From IMG/VR virus record IMGVR_UViG_2872147552_000001: DNA of 64,000 bases. One strand, written 5' to 3'. Both the position numbers and the translations under genes were made by a program. Origin of the DNA: a virus (taxonomy: Duplodnaviria; Heunggongvirae; Uroviricota; Caudoviricetes). Shown here piece after piece: positions 6,267-56,760 of the stretch (its first letter is position 1; each line of letters opens with the position of its first letter). A model generated the notes under the pieces. The model had not been told where the DNA came from, ran no database searches, and worked only from the letters and a program-made list of their open reading frames with translations.

Positions 6267-7523
6267 CTATCGAGAACCACCAAGAATAACACGGTTTTTG
6301 ACTGGATACCTACGATGTACTGGATAGCCCAATGCGTCTGCACTATGCTCAATGCCACCTGTCTTATCCATATCTCGTGTTCCAGGCTTGTAGATGACTT
6401 TTTCCAGTGAATCAATCAAATGCTTGCACTTCGGATCGATATACAGCCGGATATCTCCAGATGCGGTCATCAGCATTCGGTTAACAGCATTAACACGATC
6501 CGCAATTGGCGGGTGCTTTTTCGAATAATCGACACGTAAGAATCCCTTCTCTTTGAATATGTCGACGTCAGACTCCCCGCGAGCATGTTGGCGATAAGCA
6601 CCTGCCGGATCTGGAAATACCGTTATCTGTGATTTCCAGCGCCAGAAGCGTCTCTCAAGCTCATCACAAACCTCTGCCGTGTTAGAGGAAAAGAGCACCA
6701 ATTCATCAATTGCCCATAGCTCACCATTTGGCTGAGGTTGCAAAATTACTGAAGACATCGGGTCAATGTTGAAGTCCTGCCCTACCCATATAGGCAACCG
6801 AGGGTTGAACTGAAGCGGTTTTACATGCACGTTACGATCGAACGGGTAGTAAACGCGCCCGGACATGTTCTCAAAGCTCGCCAGGTACTCCTGAGCGAAC
6901 GATTTCGGGTCCATATCGTTCTTAGCAGCTTCAATTTCCGCCGTAGGTACAAACGGAGAATCGGCAGTTACAAACTGCCAGCTCTTCCACTGTCCCTTTC
7001 TTTGCAGCTCTACGTTCTGGCCTATAGTCCACAGTTTGTGAAATTCCGAGAAGCCTTTTGGCGTACCAATGATCAGTGCACCGCCGCGTGTCGATGAAAG
7101 AGTAGGTCGTAACACCTTGTACCAGGTGTCAGCCTTCATATCCTGAAATTCATCAAGCACTACAAAATGCAACGCTACGCCGCGCAGAGTGTCAGGCTTA
7201 TCAGCACCTTTGAGGGCGATCTCCGAACCGTTCTTCAACACGATTGTCATCGTGGTGTCGTTCTTTTTCCTAACCCACTTACGAGGCAGAACTTCCTGTA
7301 GATCGTCCCACAAAATCTGGCGAGCCATCTGGTAAGTAGGAGCGACATACCAGACCCTTTGCTTTTTTTCCTTTGCCGCCGCACGAATAATAGTGGAGAT
7401 CGACAACCGGGATTTTCCCCAGCGTCGACCAGCACAAACAACTTTAAATCGATGCGGAGACTGGAAGACTTTCATCTGTCCAGAATGCAGTTGCACAAGA
7501 CTGAGCGAGGACGGGATTGCCAT
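6267..7523 (-). CDS. terminase large subunit
   Basis: Walker A-like CAGRRWGKS near the N-terminus followed by nuclease-type C-terminal half; ATG overlaps TerS stop (TAATG coupling). Confidence 0.8.
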   Translation of the reverse strand: MAIPSSLSLVQLHSGQMKVFQSPHRFKVVCAGRRWGKSRLSISTIIRAAAKEKKQRVWYVAPTYQMARQILWDDLQEVLPRKWVRKKNDTTMTIVLKNGSEIALKGADKPDTLRGVALHFVVLDEFQDMKADTWYKVLRPTLSSTRGGALIIGTPKGFSEFHKLWTIGQNVELQRKGQWKSWQFVTADSPFVPTAEIEAAKNDMDPKSFAQEYLASFENMSGRVYYPFDRNVHVKPLQFNPRLPIWVGQDFNIDPMSSVILQPQPNGELWAIDELVLFSSNTAEVCDELERRFWRWKSQITVFPDPAGAYRQHARGESDVDIFKEKGFLRVDYSKKHPPIADRVNAVNRMLMTASGDIRLYIDPKCKHLIDSLEKVIYKPGTRDMDKTGGIEHSADALGYPVHRRYPVKNRVILGGSR

Positions 7524-8155
7524 TATTCGTCCTCCCCTTTACTTCCATCATCTGTCGCATCAAATTCGCTTAGAGCTTCTTCTTCTAACGTCTCAAGCAA
7601 TTCGTCATCGATGATTTCAGGCTCGTCGTCTTCCTGACGTAATTTCGCCACCTGGGAAGGCGTAAGCTCACCAAATACCAGGTTCGGAATTTCTTCCTCG
7701 TCATTTTCCGCATGATCCATGCCCAATGCTTTGGACGAAACTTCAAAGCATTTTGCAAGGGTATTACTGGCTCTCTGTAAGCTCTTGAGAGAATCCTCAA
7801 TCGCCCCTAAAGGCTTACCCTCACGTTTGGCCGTAGTGACTTCGACCATCACCATCTGCCCCAACGCATACGCCCAGCCGTCATAACGTGTACGACGTTC
7901 TTCTATCTTTTCCGCACGGGCTTTAGCGCGAAGCTCTGCGTCAGATTTAAGAGACTCACGAACCATCTTCCCAACAGAGTCCGCGCCTTTCTCTAATCCT
8001 CGCTTTTTGAAATGTCTGGAGAGTGTTTCACGACGAATGCCGTACTCTTCCTCCAGCTTTGAGAGTGTATATTCGCCTGACGTCCATTTGGCTTCAGCTT
8101 CGGCCCACTCCGCTGGTGTCAGGCGAGTTTTTACCTCGTCTTTTTCGACCGTCAT
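7523..8155 (-). CDS. terminase small subunit (HTH DNA-binding)
   Basis: 210-aa protein with N-terminal HTH-like segment and acidic C-terminal tail, translationally coupled to TerL; GAGGGA RBS. Confidence 0.6.
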   Translation of the reverse strand: MTVEKDEVKTRLTPAEWAEAEAKWTSGEYTLSKLEEEYGIRRETLSRHFKKRGLEKGADSVGKMVRESLKSDAELRAKARAEKIEERRTRYDGWAYALGQMVMVEVTTAKREGKPLGAIEDSLKSLQRASNTLAKCFEVSSKALGMDHAENDEEEIPNLVFGELTPSQVAKLRQEDDEPEIIDDELLETLEEEALSEFDATDDGSKGEDE

Positions 8156-8249
8156 AGATCCCTCTAAAACACACAGAGCGCGTCCATGCGCTCTAAAACA
8201 ACTTGTTTACTGAATCTGCTAACCAACTTGTTTTCTGGGGTGTTTAATT

Positions 8250-8349
8250 AGGTCTGGGCATGTCTTATTAAGCCTGCTTCCGTATATATTTAATAAGTTA
8301 CTTATTATTTATATATACAGAAGCAGGTCTTTAAATAAGCTCCCAGACC
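8250..8349. repeat. nested inverted-repeat element, copy 1 (outer arms AGGTCTGGG/CCCAGACC, inner arms GCCTGCTTCCGTATATA/TATATACAGAAGCAGG)
   Basis: Long AT-rich palindrome seen directly in sequence upstream of the terminase operon; near-identical copy at 38751-38850. Confidence 0.6.
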
Positions 8350-8351
8350 GG

Positions 8352-8618
8352 TTACATCACCAGTAACTTCGCTTTGGCTCGACCTAAAGTGGTTAACCCA
8401 AGAGTTCGGCGGTGATAGCGATTGTCACTGCGTTGGCGCGTATGCCCTTTCTCCACCAGCCCCTTTTTTATCAGAGCGCGAATTGAGAACTGGATACTTT
8501 GCTTGGTTGTCTTGTACGGCAAAACTTCAAGCAATTCGTCCAGATCAAGTAAATGACCTCGCTCATAACCGAGGTTGAGCGTTTTGATGATGTCCTTTTG
8601 TTTATCGGTTAACGTCAT
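8352..8618 (-). CDS. small DNA-binding protein (winged-helix-like), hypothetical
   Basis: 88-aa basic ORF, AAGGA RBS; first gene upstream of the terminase. Confidence 0.35.
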   Translation of the reverse strand: MTLTDKQKDIIKTLNLGYERGHLLDLDELLEVLPYKTTKQSIQFSIRALIKKGLVEKGHTRQRSDNRYHRRTLGLTTLGRAKAKLLVM

Positions 8619-17565: not shown

Positions 17566-17601
17566 AATAACAAATTGTTTTCTTGTTGGTGTTAATTATC
17601 G
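17566..17601 (-). promoter_or_regulatory. early promoter/operator module (GATAAT ... AGAAAACAA-N-TTGTTT palindrome)
   Basis: Conserved element about 20-40 nt upstream of the start codon; one of at least 13 copies in the window. Confidence 0.45.
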
Positions 17602-17722
17602 TTGTACGAATAAGGCGTCAAAGTGGAAAGTTGCGGTAGCCGGACGGGAACAGGTGGGTTTGTCGGTTGCCTGGAGGTAAGAGGTTGGTGTTTTTAGCCT
17701 GCGGGAAACAGGATGGTCATTT

Positions 17723-17746
17723 AAGGCCACCAGCATTGGTGGCCTT
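17723..17746. terminator. hairpin AAGGCCACCAGCATTGGTGGCCTT (intergenic stem-loop family)
   Basis: Perfect 9-bp stem; contains the reverse complement of the Chi octamer; no strong T-run. Confidence 0.4.
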
Positions 17747-17751
17747 AATCT

Positions 17752-18086: not shown

Positions 18087-18368
18087 AGTGTAGATAAGGC
18101 ATAAAAGAAGTTAATACAGGCTGAATACACAAGAAAGGTTCTGGAAGTTGATAGCCAGGTTTCAAACTAACCTTCGGTTATTAAAAGTCATTTAAGACCA
18201 CCAATGCTGGTGGCCTTAATAATTATCGACCGATTACGCTAAGGATCTTTTCCTCAACTGATTTGTTGTTGCGACTAAACTGCCTTGCGTATCTGATGAC
18301 AGAAGAGGCGTTTTGCTTTCTGACCATCTCGGCTCTTTCCTTCAGGCGTTTCTTGAAATCGCCCATAT

Positions 18369-26784: not shown

Positions 26785-26847
26785 CGTTATTTTCTCGAAC
26801 AAGAAAAGGTAGAAAACAAATTGTTTAAGGCCACAACTAGTGGCCTT
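26785..26847 (-). promoter_or_regulatory. truncated early promoter module plus terminator hairpin AAGGCCACAACTAGTGGCCTT
   Basis: Near-identical to the unit at 31041-31120 down to GTTATTTTC at about 26786, where similarity stops. Confidence 0.5.
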
Positions 26848-27427: not shown

Positions 27428-28217
27428 ATTTCTCCATAGCTCTTAGCCAGTAAACATGGCCACTAGGCATAGTGATGTGAGGCTCGCCAAACTCTTCTCC
27501 ATGCACATCAAAGATGTCCCCAACAGAGAATTGGGGGATTTCTACGCCGTTTTCACCTATATGCGTAATTCGTATACGTTTCGGTTGAGATTCTCCCCCT
27601 TTGAGCGAGTTGTTCACTGCTCTGGCAATCTTCTCCCGCAATTGCTGCGTTCCGTGGTACTGAACCGCAATATCCCTCAACTCATTCACCAGTTCTCGAA
27701 TCTGGTGATCTTTAAGCTCATTATTTGAGTGATGGGTAACAACTCTGGTTAATTCACCCTTGTCTTTTGCTCTTACGTATGCAGCTCTTGTGCATTCGAC
27801 CCATGTATTACCGCCTACATTAACTTCGTAGATTAGGCTGGACTTATCTGTCAATTCGGAACAAATACGGGCCGTGGTCTGGCAACTAGAGCATTCGCAG
27901 TTATCGCGGAAACCGTGATCTACCGGTCGAGAAAGAGGTTTAACTTTTTCATCCAACTTCATCACAGCATCGTGATAAGCGTTCCAGCCGTCATCTTTAC
28001 CAAGTTGATAAATCTCTGAAGGCTCCATGTAGTCTATATCGCAACCTTCTTCATCCGATCTATCTGGTCGCTTCCCTGGTAATCGCTCATAAAAACGATT
28101 TCTGTCTCGACGTTCGGCTCTCAGTGCTAACGCAAGAAGTTGCTCAAGCGAGGTATTTGCACCAGCAATAATTTCATTGAGAATATCTTCTGTGAGATCT
28201 TTCGCTACCGTGCTCAT
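27402..28217 (-). CDS. hypothetical Cys-rich protein (possible zinc-binding partner of the Toprim protein)
   Basis: 271-aa ORF with clustered cysteines (CECSSCQ ... C); overlaps downstream gene by 26 nt. Confidence 0.3.
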   Translation of the reverse strand: MSTVAKDLTEDILNEIIAGANTSLEQLLALALRAERRDRNRFYERLPGKRPDRSDEEGCDIDYMEPSEIYQLGKDDGWNAYHDAVMKLDEKVKPLSRPVDHGFRDNCECSSCQTTARICSELTDKSSLIYEVNVGGNTWVECTRAAYVRAKDKGELTRVVTHHSNNELKDHQIRELVNELRDIAVQYHGTQQLREKIARAVNNSLKGGESQPKRIRITHIGENGVEIPQFSVGDIFDVHGEEFGEPHITMPSGHVYWLRAMEKYGDKWEVL

Positions 28218-28597
28218 TTATCTCTCTCAGTATGTTGCGATGGCGTAAATTTGACGACATCAAATATTTTGGATGGCATCAACTTTATCCGCGAGCTTAG
28301 TTCGGCTCTTCTCTGTAATGCGGTTAATAATGTTTTCGTTCTGACGCCTTCGTGTATCCTCATCCCTGGCACAAGAACTACATCGCAGGGGAGATGCTCA
28401 GGTGACAAATCATTTTGGGCATCGCTAATCAGTCGTGTAATCTCTCTTTCAAGCCGACCGCCTAGCTCTGTTTTAGTGCAATGTTCTGACCAATCACCAG
28501 CCTCAAGCAGCGCGAGAATGCTTAAAATATCGTCCAATAGATCAGTGGTATTATCGACTTCCTTCTGAAGCTCACCGGCTACTGATTTATGCATCAT
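28214..28597 (-). CDS. hypothetical protein
   Basis: 127-aa ORF translationally coupled to its neighbours. Confidence 0.35.
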   Translation of the reverse strand: MMHKSVAGELQKEVDNTTDLLDDILSILALLEAGDWSEHCTKTELGGRLEREITRLISDAQNDLSPEHLPCDVVLVPGMRIHEGVRTKTLLTALQRRAELSSRIKLMPSKIFDVVKFTPSQHTERDK

Positions 28598-37855: not shown

Positions 37856-38439
37856 ATAAACTCCTGAATCAAGCGCCGCGCCGATTTTTTCCTCGCGCGT
37901 GCGCACACGCGTGCGTGTTAATAATTATTAAAATAAACAAATTACTTCCCAGAACAGGTTTTTATAAACCTGAACTGAACGAACGAAGTGAGTGAAGTTC
38001 ACCTCGAACGAAGTGAGAGGTTGTCTTTTCAGGTAATACTCTCCCAGGGAGGTGAGTATAAAAATCCCTCACCAACCTGGTCGTTTCATAACCTGAAAAG
38101 TTATGGCCTAAGTCTACTGCCAGCTTAGACTTGGGAAGTTATGGATGACAGCACCCCAGAACCGAGATCTTCCCACACTTTATGAAGGGGAGTACTGGAT
38201 TCAACCTCTCGAAACACCCCAGACTCGACAATCATAAAGTGACCCTTGTCTCCGCTCACTTTGGTTCCCCCTTCCCCGACACCTAAACGGCACCGGTTCT
38301 ACGCTGGTAGTGAGCTTTTTTTAAACCTGACGCCAGTGACGCTTACCCCCACCCATCAGGTCGAGTCTCCAGTCTACGACTGGAAACTAGCAGATCTTAG
38401 CACTTACAATTCACTTTATGAATAGTTTGTACTTATCTA

Positions 38440-38694
38440 TCATTTCGATTGATTATTTTCTCGACCATGTAGTTGAACATTCAAGGCAAACACCTCATTG
38501 ATCAACTCACCTAAAAGCTGTTCAACAAGTTCGCGATGCTCGCCAAGATGCAAGCACTTAATTGCCCATTCGTACAAGTTGAAAGCCTGCTCGCGATCTT
38601 TCATCATTTCACGGGCCTGGGCCAGAAAATCGCTCTCTACGAGCGCAACGACATTAGTCGGGTATGACATGTTGGTTTCCTTAAAGTGGTTCAT
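38440..38694 (-). CDS. hypothetical small protein
   Basis: 84-aa ORF downstream of nested hairpin element copy 2. Confidence 0.4.
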   Translation of the reverse strand: MNHFKETNMSYPTNVVALVESDFLAQAREMMKDREQAFNLYEWAIKCLHLGEHRELVEQLLGELINEVFALNVQLHGRENNQSK

Positions 38695-38750: not shown

Positions 38751-38850
38751 AGGTCTGGGAGTCTCTGATATAAAACAGCCTGCTTCCGTATATTAATAAT
38801 TAATATGTAGTTATTTATATATACAGAAGCAGGCTAATTACAGACGCCAG
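38751..38850. repeat. nested inverted-repeat element, copy 2
   Basis: Shares AGGTCTGGG and the GCCTGCTTCCGTATAT / TATATACAGAAGCAGG arms with the copy at 8250-8349. Confidence 0.6.
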
Positions 38851-38856
38851 AACAAA

Positions 38857-39450
38857 CTAAGCAGCCTTCTTTGATGGTCTTTTTTTCCTGATCACATTCG
38901 CAGGATCATACCCTCCCAGACTTTTCATGACATCCAAAGGGATCTTGCTTATAGAGTGCCCAGCGTCCTGACAGAATCCTCGAAAAACAACGAGCATACT
39001 GCCACCGGGGTTGATGTTTACTTCTACCTGACCCAGATTGACGTCAGGCTCGACAAACGCTACGCGGCCACCAGACAGAATAATCGTCTCATTCGCACAC
39101 TCTGTTGCACGCTCATACCACTTTGTATCGAGGGATTGAGGAATTAGCATCACTGTTGTAACTCCGCGAGCCTGCTCACGTATAGCCGCATCAATCCAGG
39201 GGGAGATTTTGGAGTAGGGTGGATTGAGGAAGGCAATTGTACCTGGCTGCCCCCATTCAGATTTCAAAGCATCACGCTCAACGCCTATGAAATTAGGCAG
39301 CTTCGCATTATCCTTGTTGCAGGCAACGTCAACATCAAATGTCACTCCAAGATAACGTTGAATGGCAGAAAACAGCCAGTCAGGTGTTCTCCAGAGGTCA
39401 CGAAGAGAGTTGTCGCGCTTTCGCTGTTTGATTTTTTCGGCTGCAATCAT
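38857..39450 (-). CDS. phage-type DNA N6-adenine methyltransferase (Dam-like)
   Basis: IAFLNPPYS catalytic motif and overall size (197 aa) typical of phage Dam-family enzymes; palindromic motif 39461-39481 immediately upstream. Confidence 0.7.
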   Translation of the reverse strand: MIAAEKIKQRKRDNSLRDLWRTPDWLFSAIQRYLGVTFDVDVACNKDNAKLPNFIGVERDALKSEWGQPGTIAFLNPPYSKISPWIDAAIREQARGVTTVMLIPQSLDTKWYERATECANETIILSGGRVAFVEPDVNLGQVEVNINPGGSMLVVFRGFCQDAGHSISKIPLDVMKSLGGYDPANVIRKKRPSKKAA

Positions 39451-54477: not shown

Positions 54478-54676
54478 AATCGTTTTTTCAGTAGTTATTG
54501 GCCGATGCTACGATAACTCATTAGGCATACCTTAATCTGCATTTGCCTGTTTTACTTATCCCAGTTATCCACTGGATAGATCCAAATAAGAGATCCCAAG
54601 TAAGATCAAATAGAAGATCCAAAGAGATCCCAGATCGCCTCTAGCCGTTGCGGTTACTGGTCTGAAAGGGTGTTGC

Positions 54677-54779
54677 CATCCACTATGGAGAGCAAAGAAA
54701 CCTCTGTAGAGAGCTGAATAACCGCTATGAAGAGTAAAACAACCACTCTGGAGAGCTGTATATATCCACTGTAGAGAGT
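54677..54779 (+). repeat. iteron array 1 (5 direct repeats, consensus A-A/T-CCACT-A/G-T-A/G-GAGAG-C/T, about 21-22 bp spacing)
   Basis: ATCCACTATGGAGAGC, ACCTCTGTAGAGAGC, AACCGCTATGAAGAGT, AACCACTCTGGAGAGC, ATCCACTGTAGAGAGT. Confidence 0.7.
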
Positions 54780-54890
54780 AGAGCACATTGTCTTTTATGG
54801 ATAACTTAATGACTTAATTCTTCATTAACATACTGATATACATAGATATATTTTAAACTCTACTCTTAGTCATGATTCTTATGTCCTTAA

Positions 54891-54946
54891 ATATCCACAG
54901 AAGAGTAGAGTTACCTGTTCTTGAAATCCTCTGATTTTTATCCACA
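54891..54946 (+). promoter_or_regulatory. DnaA boxes (ATATCCACA 8/9 at 54891-54899; TTATCCACA 9/9 at 54938-54946) in an AT-rich spacer
   Basis: Perfect match to the TTATCCACA consensus, located between iteron arrays 1 and 2 next to a 110-bp AT-rich stretch. Confidence 0.6.
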
Positions 54947-55057
54947 GGCCCGATCCAGTAATTCAGATCACAAAGAGAACCAAAGAGACCCATAAAGACC
55001 CAATAAGATCCCCGCCCACCTCAAACCGTTGTGCCATCTGCCTTCAGACATGATCGA

Positions 55058-55180
55058 TATCCACTATAGAGAGCGAATAATCCACTATAGGGAGCAAAGC
55101 AACCACTATAGAGAGGAGAAAAACCACTATAGACGGTAGGATAACCGCTGTGATGAGTGCTACTATCCACTGTAATCAGC
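55058..55180 (+). repeat. iteron array 2 (6 direct repeats)
   Basis: ATCCACTATAGAGAGC, ATCCACTATAGGGAGC, AACCACTATAGAGAGG, AACCACTATAGACGGT, AACCGCTGTGATGAGT, ATCCACTGTAATCAGC immediately upstream of the rep gene. Confidence 0.7.
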
Positions 55181-55220: not shown

Positions 55221-56276
55221 ATGAGCGAAAACGGCAATAAAAACATAGCGATCGTTGAAGCATTTTCAGAAACAGATAAAAAGACAGGCGAAGTTGTTAC
55301 GTTGGTTCCTAACACTAATAACACTGTTCAGCCTGTTGCTTTGATGCGTCTGGGCCTCTTCGTTCCGACGCTGAAATCGACATCCAGAGGAAGAAAGGGG
55401 CAAATGGTCTCTATGGATGCCTCTGCTGAACTCAAACAGCTGTCTCTGGCAAAAGCCGAAGGGTACGAAGACATAAGGATCTCTGGCCTTCGGCTTGATA
55501 TGGATAACGACTTTAAAACGTGGGTGGGAATAATCCACGCGTTTGCCAAACACAAGGTCGTTGGCGATACTGTCACGTTGCCGTTCGTTGAGTTTGTAAG
55601 GCTGTGTGGCATTCCGACCGCCAGGTCATCAGCGAAGTTACGCAAACGCCTGGACAGTTCGCTAAGCCGTATTGCCACAAATACCATCTCGTTCCGTAGT
55701 AAAGGCTCTGATGAGTTTTACGTAACGCATCTTGTGCAAACGGCAAAATATAGTGTCAAGCACGATACGGTCGAACTGAAAGCAGATCCCAAGATTTTCG
55801 AACTCTACCAGTTCGACAAAAAGGTTCTTCTGCAACTCCGGGCTATAAACGAACTCTCAAGAAAAGAATCCGCTCAGGCGCTTTATACTTTTATTGAAAG
55901 TTTGCCGCCTGATCCGGCACCAATATCACTAGCCCGTTTACGCGCCAGACTTAATCTGACAAGTCGCACTATTACTCAGAATGCGACGGTAAGAAAGGCT
56001 ATGGAACAGCTGCGAGAGATAGGATATCTCGATTACACGGAAGTTAAGCGCGGAAACTCGGTCTACTTCGTCATCCACTATAGGCGGCCAAAGTTACGCC
56101 AGGCACAAATATCAACAAAAATCGATAATGATGAGACGGAATATAGCCTCCCAGATGAGAATCAAGATGACATTATCGACGTTGTGCCTGACGAAAAAGA
56201 AGGCAAAATGGTCATGTTGAGTAAAGAAGAACTGGCGCTTCTCGAAGAGTTGCGCAAGGCAAAGACTCGCAAATAG
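55221..56276 (+). CDS. replication initiator protein (iteron-binding Rep candidate)
   Basis: 351-aa plus-strand ORF flanked on both sides by iteron arrays, DnaA boxes and an AT-rich region; assignment by context. Confidence 0.55.
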
Positions 56277-56278
56277 CC

Positions 56279-56395
56279 CAACCACTGTAGTTAGTAGTAA
56301 GGCTCACTATCCACTGTAGTGAGCCTTACTTATATCTGTAATTCGCTATCCACTATAGTGAGTATCGTTATCTGTTGATAACCACTGTAGGCAGT
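56279..56395 (+). repeat. iteron array 3 (4 direct repeats downstream of rep)
   Basis: AACCACTGTAGTTAGT, ATCCACTGTAGTGAGC, ATCCACTATAGTGAGT, AACCACTGTAGGCAGT. Confidence 0.65.
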
Positions 56396-56494
56396 AGAAT
56401 GCAAATACTGAATTAAATGTTAGTGATCACTAACACTGATGAAACAAGGGCTGCGAGGTTAGTGGTCACTGGGTATCTTGGAAAATTTACTGTC

Positions 56495-56760
56495 TATAGT
56501 GGTTGTTGTCGCCCTCATCTTTGAGCGTATCCACTGTGGCGAGTGGATATCCACTGAAAACAGCAAAGGCTTACTCACCATAGTGTATACCCGCTGGACA
56601 TCTCACTCCAATACTCACCATAGTGGTTGTTTGATGCGAATGAAAGGCTGTCTACTCGCTACAGTGGTTAGCAGATATGTAGGAAGAGAGGACTGCAGAC
56701 CACAGTGGATAATGAGCTGATACGAATGCGGTGAGCTGGCTACTCACCGCAGTGGTTGGT
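56495..56760 (-). repeat. iteron array 4 (about 6 copies, mostly inverted orientation)
   Basis: CTATAGTGGTTG, CACCATAGTG, CACCATAGTGGTTG, CTACAGTGGTT, CCACAGTGGATAAT, CACCGCAGTGGTTGG are reverse complements of the iteron core. Confidence 0.55.

Follow-up and report, generated by a model that had tools for sequence, protein, structure and literature searches.

A three-copy hairpin family at candidate transcript boundaries of SSU5/pHCM2/pMT1-type phage-plasmids

Introduction

Rho-independent terminators are characterized by a stable hairpin of 5-12 pairs with a G+C-rich base, positioned directly after a stop codon in the orientation of the operon and followed by a U-rich tail. Hairpins of another kind are found in phage T7, whose RNase III sites, such as R0.3 and R1.1, are sequence-related structures located between the gene blocks of one genome; these sites display a characteristic internal loop and have been mapped biochemically. 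Packaging sites, exemplified by lambda cos, P1 pac and SPP1 pac, usually reside in the vicinity of the small terminase gene, and cosN exhibits dyad symmetry. The phage-plasmid N15 harbours several palindromic centromere sites distributed around the replicon, some of them beside lytic-gene control regions; these sites are short (∼16 bp) and are bound by a known protein, SopB. ERIC and REP elements are imperfect palindromes of ∼100 nt lying in transcribed intergenic regions.

The window analysed here, a stretch of 64,000 nucleotides, belongs to an SSU5/pHCM2-type phage-plasmid of E. coli and is 96-98% identical to 'phage CMS-2020a', PhiR41_1 and Cyrano. Phage-plasmids of the SSU5 type are common in clinical Enterobacterales and their regulation is essentially unstudied. 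The window contains two copies of a large hairpin, copies 1 and 2, which are members of a three-copy family in phage-plasmids of the SSU5/pHCM2/pMT1 type.

The element shares with Rho-independent terminators the stable hairpin, the G+C-rich base, the position after a stop codon and the orientation, together with a U-rich tail at copies 2 and 3 and a large drop in RNA at copy 3; moreover, a canonical terminator stands in at the copy-1 site of a relative. It departs from them in its stem, which comprises at least 25 pairs, or ∼45 with the flanks, and is AT-rich in its upper half, in the recurrence of the same sequence at three sites and in different genera, and in the lack of a U-tract at copy 1. 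As in T7, several related hairpins separate gene blocks of one genome, and the predicted double-stranded RNA of more than 20 bp is long enough for RNase III and could leave a protective 3' structure; unlike the T7 sites, copies 2 and 3 look like terminators. The location of copy 1 just upstream of the presumed small terminase gene and the dyad symmetry are reminiscent of cos and pac, but there are three copies per genome, the large terminase is not of the cos type and the sequence is absent at the corresponding site of relatives. In comparison with the SopB sites of N15, the core is much longer (55 bp) and is tied to stop codons and U-tracts. Finally, whereas size and intergenic position recall ERIC and REP elements, the family is confined to SSU5-type plasmids, where it is fixed at three orthologous sites, and no similarity to those elements has been established.

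The interpretation that we favour, with moderate confidence, is that the three hairpins form a family of transcript-boundary structures, which most likely stop or trim transcripts. The hairpin is probably an ordinary, so far unannotated regulatory element of a clinically widespread phage-plasmid family.

Gene neighbourhood of the two window copies

Almost all genes of the window are carried on the minus strand. In the direction of transcription copy 1 therefore follows the 88-aa gene and precedes terS, and copy 2 follows dam and precedes the 84-aa gene (Table 1). A preliminary description of this DNA had located the hairpins at operon starts, which is accurate with regard to the downstream genes but leaves out that, in the sense direction, each hairpin comes directly after the end of the preceding gene. 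The 88-aa product is a probable winged-helix DNA-binding protein. The 210-aa protein encoded beyond copy 1, annotated as 'Terminase small subunit' in Cyrano, is presumed to be the small terminase (TerS). Pfam and PHROGs confirmed the identities of TerL, portal, Dam and RNase H, and searches of PDB sequences with the 88-aa protein and TerS as queries returned no useful match.

Table 1. Coordinates of the hairpin copies and of neighbouring features in the 64,000-nt window
Feature	Position	Strand	Remarks
Copy 1 (class c1), whole nested palindrome	8250-8349	-	between 88-aa gene and terS
Copy 1, core palindrome	8273-8327		arms 8273-8288 and 8312-8327, AT-rich self-complementary centre between
Copy 1, outer arm AGGTCTGGG	8250-8258		pairs with 8342-8349
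Copy 1, outer arm CTCCCAGACC (sense strand GGTCTGGGAG)	8340-8349		begins 2 nt beyond the stop codon that ends the 88-aa gene
Copy 2 (class c2), palindrome	38751-38850	-	between dam and 84-aa gene
Copy 2, core palindrome	38779-38833		from repeat pairing and arm search
Copy 2, U-rich tail in sense direction, CUGUUUUAU	38770-38778	-	
Two AAACAANTTGTTT dyads	8196-8233		between copy 1 and terS
Compact terminator-like hairpin	8164-8195	-	GAGCGCATGGACGCGCUC then UGUGUGUUUUAG; U-rich tail; terS leader, past the dyads and immediately ahead of the start codon
88-aa gene	8352-8618	-	phrog_900; CYRAN_123 in Cyrano; last gene before copy 1
210-aa DNA-binding protein (presumed TerS)	7523-8155	-	phrog_867; first gene past copy 1
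TerL	6267-7523	-	directly after terS; Pfam/PHROGs
dam methyltransferase	38857-39450	-	PF05869, 2.5e-38; stop codon directly before copy 2
84/76-aa gene	38440-38670	-	phrog_5343; first gene after copy 2, followed by RNase H

Two further regions of the window deserve mention. Iteron-like repeats (CCACTATAGAGAG) at 54673-55132 and 56304-56673 flank a plus-strand ORF of 351 aa (55221-56276), which is annotated as RepA/RepB in relatives; the plasmid's origin of replication lies here. A 45-aa ORF at ∼38126-38260 on the minus strand, located between the 84-aa gene and RNase H, corresponds to CYRAN_81, which reaches ∼117 fpkm in the Cyrano lysogen against a background of ∼10 and could represent a small RNA or a moron gene.

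Sequence and folding of copies 1 and 2

Both members of the duplicated ∼100-base hairpin are present with the sequences first reported for them. Copy 1 consists of AGGTCTGGG, GCCTGCTTCCGTATATA, an AT-rich centre, TATATACAGAAGCAGG and CCCAGACC, and copy 2 contains the same AGGTCTGGG and both inner arms. A repeat search paired 8271-8327 with 38777-38833 over 57 nt at 82% identity, and a search of the 64 kb for arms of 16 nt with up to three mismatches retrieved exactly these four arms (0.56 expected).

The centre, previously regarded as a loop, pairs with itself (AATAAGT-T-ACTTATT), so that the core is a near-perfect palindrome of ∼55 nt with a 3-nt apex. The arms and the outer stem of copy 1 are as originally proposed, with AGGTCTGGG pairing with CCCAGACC and the core nested inside; it is the open loop that does not hold. 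Copy 2 is devoid of an exact outer complement and exhibits offset pairs instead, GGTCTGG/CCAGAAC and GCGTCTG (38720)/CAGACGC (38842).

Compared with shuffled sequences, the DNA fold of copy 1 has a z-score of -7.8 on one strand and -8.6 on the other; for copy 2 the values are -3.8 and -5.7. The sense RNAs fold with -50.6 kcal/mol (z -10.2) and -41.8 kcal/mol (z -6.5), respectively, and the base of the stem, CCUGC/GCAGG, is G+C-rich. The predicted sense fold of copy 1 comprises a 17-pair stem, 7 further apical pairs and the outer stem.

A third copy and the distribution of the family

The complete circular plasmid NZ_CP062854.1 (107,422 bp) harbours exactly three copies in the same orientation, at 28.2, 64.1 and 91.4 kb, which are thus spaced 27-44 kb apart on the ∼107-kb circle. 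The third copy (c3) falls outside the window. A pattern scan of IMG/VR, complemented by BLAST over the returned loci, yielded about 95 places; a later arm-pair scan, to which loci from genome collections were added, increased the set to 109 instances, 105 of which are assignable to three positional classes. Class c1 lies between the 88-aa gene and terS, class c2 between dam and the 84-aa gene, and class c3 at the third site, where the upstream flank is variable cargo and the downstream flank (CCCTTCCGTTTCCACTTCC...) is constant and leads to a 246-aa gene, a DnaB-like helicase and a primase. Every copy begins 2-25 nt past the stop codon that closes a minus-strand operon, and the following operon opens with its first gene ∼80-145 nt beyond the hairpin, the downstream operons being the packaging and structural operon (c1), the 84-aa gene with RNase H (c2) and the helicase-primase operon (c3).

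The upstream side of c3 is a hotspot of variable cargo, as seen at 28171-28315 of NZ_CP062854.1 and in the IMG/VR copies of this class. The cargo includes a GIY-YIG nuclease gene and toxin-like genes, and its breakpoint falls at or just outside the palindrome.

In PLSDB, 799 plasmids from Klebsiella, Escherichia, Enterobacter, Yersinia, Salmonella, Citrobacter and Cronobacter contain the element, which is also found in Kluyvera and Buttiauxella genomes. Among 5,426 complete E. coli genomes, 260 carry it, in all cases unannotated, and 1041 of the 1043 places are on plasmids, with none scattered through chromosomes; the median of four places per genome is to be read with the fact that a palindromic copy can be counted on both strands. 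The representative contig of Yersinia pestis contains a single palindromic match. Rfam 15 has no match in the window at gathering thresholds, the only local hits being generic sub-threshold hairpins of the miRNA-precursor kind. About 5% of the complete E. coli genomes harbour plasmids with the element; genes for resistance and for toxins are found on these plasmids, and the hairpins may be used as landmarks in their annotation.

Evidence for transcript ends

U-rich tails after the 3' arm occur in the sense direction only and in classes c2 and c3 only. The sense tail contains on average 5.4 T in 9 positions at c2 and 5.8 in 9 at c3, against 3.1-3.8 in the antisense direction, the lower value being that of c2, and 2.9 in 9 at c1. 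Examples are CTGTTTTAT or CTTTTTAAG for c2 and TCTTTTAAA or TCTTTTTCT for c3. At the equivalent position copy 1 reads CUUAAUAAG, without a U-tract, as is the case in every lineage that has the core, and c1 is thus not a canonical terminator. A consensus terminator scan called neither of the window copies. All three copies are nevertheless located where a terminator is expected, downstream of the end of a co-oriented gene, and the predicted fold of copy 1, a hairpin in an intergenic region, exceeds the ∼20 bp of double-stranded RNA that RNase III acts upon.

Cyrano is the plasmid pLF82, for which RNA-seq of the lysogen has been published (PMC9928086, S1 Table; GSE154648). A gap of 194 nt separates CYRAN_30 from the co-directional CYRAN_31 and contains the c3 copy, which starts 24 nt past the CYRAN_30 stop codon and has perfect arms, with TCTTTTAAAG behind them; CYRAN_31 starts 116 nt after the copy. 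The ParA-operon genes CYRAN_28-30 reach log2(fpkm+5) values of up to 10.4; CYRAN_30 itself is at 8.6-10.4 in four of five conditions and at 5.7-5.8 in LB, whereas CYRAN_31 is at 2.3-4.2, at or near the floor of 2.32 (PMC9928086). The RNA level consequently falls ∼100- to 1000-fold across c3, a drop in gene-level data that may stem from termination or from decay of the downstream RNA. The combination of variable upstream cargo with a constant hairpin and a constant downstream flank is what a terminator shielding the replication operon would be expected to show.

The picture at the other two sites is less contrasted. In condition MB6 the 88-aa gene is at 6.5-6.6 and terS at 4.9-5.6 (PMC9928086), a ∼2-3-fold difference across c1 in that one condition; in these data both sides of c1 are near background, and so are the genes on either side of c2. 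The idea of an insulator between genes expressed in lysogeny and silent genes was for this reason discarded for c1 and c2 and holds for c3 only.

Sites homologous to copy 1 in more distant relatives are instructive. Relatives whose TerS is 53-61% identical maintain the gene order of two ParB_N proteins, an ABC ATPase, the 299-aa and 88-aa genes, the gap, TerS, TerL and portal. In one of them (L157, TerS 61% identical) only a remnant of the 5' arm, GAGCCTGATTCTGTATGT, persists; its partner is a new 3' arm with ATTTTTTTTATTTTTT behind it. The resulting hairpin, called by the terminator scan, has a U8 tract and is a canonical intrinsic terminator, after which come the AAACAANTTGTTT dyads. In a second relative (L158) the gap measures only 87 nt and the 13-bp hairpin within it is unrelated, and in two others (L155 and L156) the site is AT-rich and its hairpins are weak. 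The replaced hairpins indicate that the site needs a hairpin at the transcript end and not this particular sequence.

Taken with the sense-only tails and the drop at c3, the terminator of L157 favours termination, as had been suggested at the outset, but in one direction and not in both. Each member of the family is a near-perfect AT-centred palindrome of ∼55 nt embedded in an imperfect palindrome of ∼100-120 nt and, once transcribed, would adopt a very stable hairpin. At c2 and c3 this hairpin and the U-rich tract would terminate transcription in a factor-independent manner and so insulate the lytic operon that comes next, a function that is shown indirectly at c3 and that we infer for c2. 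Copy c1, with the longest hairpin and no U-tract, would by the same reasoning act as a weak or leaky terminator, or as a hairpin that protects the 3' end or is cleavable by RNase III, and would separate the message of the 88-aa gene from the late promoter region; promoter function downstream would reside in neighbouring motifs and not in the hairpin. Such an arrangement would provide a first map of transcription units in these replicons, with three conserved hairpins delimiting the lytic operons and one of them preventing the constitutive expression of partition and cargo genes from reaching the replication operon.

Conservation of the core and possible action at the DNA level

From class to class and genus to genus, hardly any variation is seen in the arms (CCTGCTTCYGTATATA) and in much of the centre. 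Among 15 c1 orthologues the arms vary at two mirrored positions only, where compensated alleles are found (CTTCCG/CGGAAG; CGTCTG/CAGACG, as in L008); uncompensated hybrid arms also occur, as in c2 of SSU5. RNAalifold applied to the same 15 orthologues shows an invariant inner stem and two compensatory pairs, both in the outer stem. The flanks differ by class and have in common an outer inverted motif, TCTGG(G) with (C)CCAGA, through which most of the flank pairing takes place. When native flanks were compared with chimeric ones, the native match was slightly but not significantly better (p = 0.11). The balance of G.U and A.C mismatches, which would discriminate selection on RNA from selection on DNA, disclosed no consistent strand bias: the bias is towards the sense strand in c1 (16 of 20) and towards the antisense strand in the Klebsiella and Salmonella lineages at c2, and c3 is mixed.

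Since the sequence is conserved and not only its pairing, simple termination does not explain the core, whose length also exceeds by far what a terminator requires, and a nearly invariant core and apex within divergent flanks point to sequence-specific recognition. The conservation may be due to gene conversion between the copies or to recognition by some factor; in the latter case the sites would offer handles on the switch from lysogeny to lysis.

This pattern is an argument for a possible action on DNA, in which a palindrome or cruciform is recognised by a putative phage or plasmid protein. We consider this unlikely on the whole, although several observations speak for it: at three sites the core and the outer TCTGG/CCAGA are kept as sequence and not merely as pairing, c1 and c2 are each followed by additional CCAGA(C/A) repeats, extrusion of a cruciform is favoured by the AT-rich centre together with the near-perfect symmetry, and the two strands fold about equally well, with no asymmetry of the RNA type. 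Genes for two ParB_N proteins closely precede c1, a gene for a ParA-type ATPase lies upstream of c3, and the phage-plasmid encodes T4-like recombination and replication proteins as well as SbcCD- and RuvC-like nucleases. Possible variants, each of comparably low probability, are dispersed lytic origins with the AT-rich centre as unwinding element, centromere sites akin to those of N15, and programmed cleavage sites. In the cleavage variant, which we hold to be no more probable, the element's own SbcCD/RuvC-type nucleases would open the circular prophage for recombination-dependent replication.

None of these variants predicts the strict placement after stop codons, the sense-specific U-tracts or the RNA drop at c3, and in relatives that share the gene order the sequence is missing at c1, with ordinary or unrelated hairpins in its place. 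A centromere role is further at odds with the single palindromic match in the representative contig of Y. pestis. The partition system of pMT1, which we take to be a P1-type par system, would likewise argue against it.

The palindromes could also act on DNA instead of, or besides, RNA in a more specific manner, as cruciform or hairpin sites for the phage-plasmid's own machinery at the lytic switch, a proposal that strikes us as rather improbable. Candidate components, put forward with the same reserve, are the SbcCD- and RuvC-like nucleases, the ParB_N proteins, the 88-aa winged-helix-like protein and, at copy 1, the terminase; opening of the circle, the start of recombination-dependent replication or the start of packaging are the conceivable, and similarly doubtful, outcomes. 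If true, this proposal would account for the preservation of the core sequence, beyond its pairing, at three sites.

Packaging site

Its position upstream of the terminase genes had made a pac- or cos-associated role for copy 1 seem plausible, and this attribution was a guess based on position. In such a scenario copy 1 would be the recognition or cleavage site of packaging, or a part of it, and the other copies relics or decoys. Copy 1 does lie 144 nt upstream of the presumed terS, in the usual neighbourhood of pac and cos, and c1 has the longest and best preserved outer stem of the three classes and no terminator tail. In addition, the linear GenBank record of the virion-derived SSU5 (NC_018843.1, 103,299 bp) is opened inside the copy-1 loop, starting and ending 8 nt past the centre of the palindrome.

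The last point loses weight on closer inspection. Contig ends from unrelated assemblies gather at all three copies: of 38 such ends, five are situated at a distance of 140-210 nt from a c1, c2 or c3 copy, and one IMG/VR contig (L068) begins 12 nt past the centre of a c3 copy. As assemblies break at copies of every class, the SSU5 end looks like an artefact, and an assembly artefact is its simplest explanation; record ends at these hairpins should therefore not be taken as phage termini. The Cyrano record has a start identical to that of SSU5, but Cyrano is a re-annotated plasmid that was compared with SSU5 over the whole genome in its paper, so that its layout was presumably matched to SSU5 and is not independent evidence. 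The record of phage vB_KpnS_p4727 also begins close to copy 2, but its first position is the ATG of the gene that follows; it was set aside as an arbitrary choice of start.

A packaging site is moreover expected to be single, whereas three near-identical cores are present per genome, and homologous TerS/TerL operons of relatives are not preceded by this sequence. TerL is Terminase_6N/Terminase_3-like in Pfam and does not belong to a cos-type family; its characterised relatives, those of Jersey-like and T5-like phages, are only 25-27% identical, too distant to decide the mode of packaging. Jersey-like and T5-like phages are, to our knowledge, not cohesive-end phages. Searches of the literature on SSU5, pHCM2, pMT1 and Cyrano for palindromes or termini found nothing, and thus no paper reporting termini of the SSU5 type. 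On these grounds a packaging role appears highly doubtful, and the transcript-boundary interpretation is preferred for copy 1 as well.

Promoter elements and AAACAANTTGTTT dyads

It had also been suggested that the hairpin is itself a late promoter or an activator-binding site. All three copies do precede the first gene of such an operon, and the 3' flanks share CCAGAC, ∼11 nt and CCAGAA, as well as CCCTTCC. Yet no sigma-70-like promoter is called in copy 1, and CYRAN_31, located after c3, is silent while the genes upstream are expressed. A much better candidate is the AAACAANTTGTTT dyad, which persists in relatives without the palindrome. This motif, often extended to ...TTTTCT, is found 16 times in the window, where 0.5 matches would be expected, and each time in a gap that closely precedes a minus-strand operon, so that the promoter role first ascribed to the hairpin fits the adjacent dyads better and is very improbable for the hairpin.

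The dyads probably represent an operator or promoter element of the lytic operons. They are found 15-50 nt before many operon starts, including that of terS, and the pair at 8196-8233 is the probable promoter/operator of the packaging operon; further matches are located at 17568, 18053, 18803, 19706, 20191, 21385, 22825, 22876, 26814, 31087, 35627, 36356, 46571 and 58301. Downstream of this pair, the compact terminator-like hairpin of the terS leader is kept in SSU5, with an altered stem, and in L157. This suggests that the late operon is under antitermination control.

Repetitive elements and recombination sites

A selfish or neutral repeated palindrome of the MITE, ERIC or REP kind, with no function for the phage-plasmid, would be multi-copy, intergenic and an imperfect palindrome of ∼100 nt, as this one is, and the arms occur as alternative alleles with hybrids, which suggests exchange between copies; this too is most improbable given that the copies occupy three orthologous positions that do not change from genus to genus, that the E. 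coli occurrences are plasmid-borne with two exceptions and not scattered in chromosomes, and that no target duplications or variable insertion sites were seen. A telomere-resolution site (protelomerase, telRL) was discounted, as the replicon NZ_CP062854.1 is circular and its annotation includes no protelomerase gene, the only annotated recombinase being a 367-aa integrase. The arms resemble those of loxP (CTTCGTATA), but a recombinase site was rejected on reasoning alone, since three direct copies would delete the segments between them.

Other hairpins of the window

A second family of small hairpins, for example GATAGGTAAGTGATTACCTATC with a 9-bp stem and a GTGA loop, is present at gene junctions, with 8 matches against 0.6 expected (2831, 6254, 11775, 32280, 37249, 39465, 44300 and 49010). 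In the Cyrano RNA-seq data the RNA level drops across the copy of this family between CYRAN_78 and dam. The apex of the large palindrome holds a TAAGTnAC motif that is similar to the small hairpins.

Compact terminator-like palindromes (TTAAGGCCACC...GGTGGCCTTAA; AAGGCCACAACTAGTGGCCTT) are located in the accessory region at 17721-17748 and 18192-18219, and at 26830 and 31100. Their recurrence indicates that the phage-plasmid also employs conventional short hairpins.
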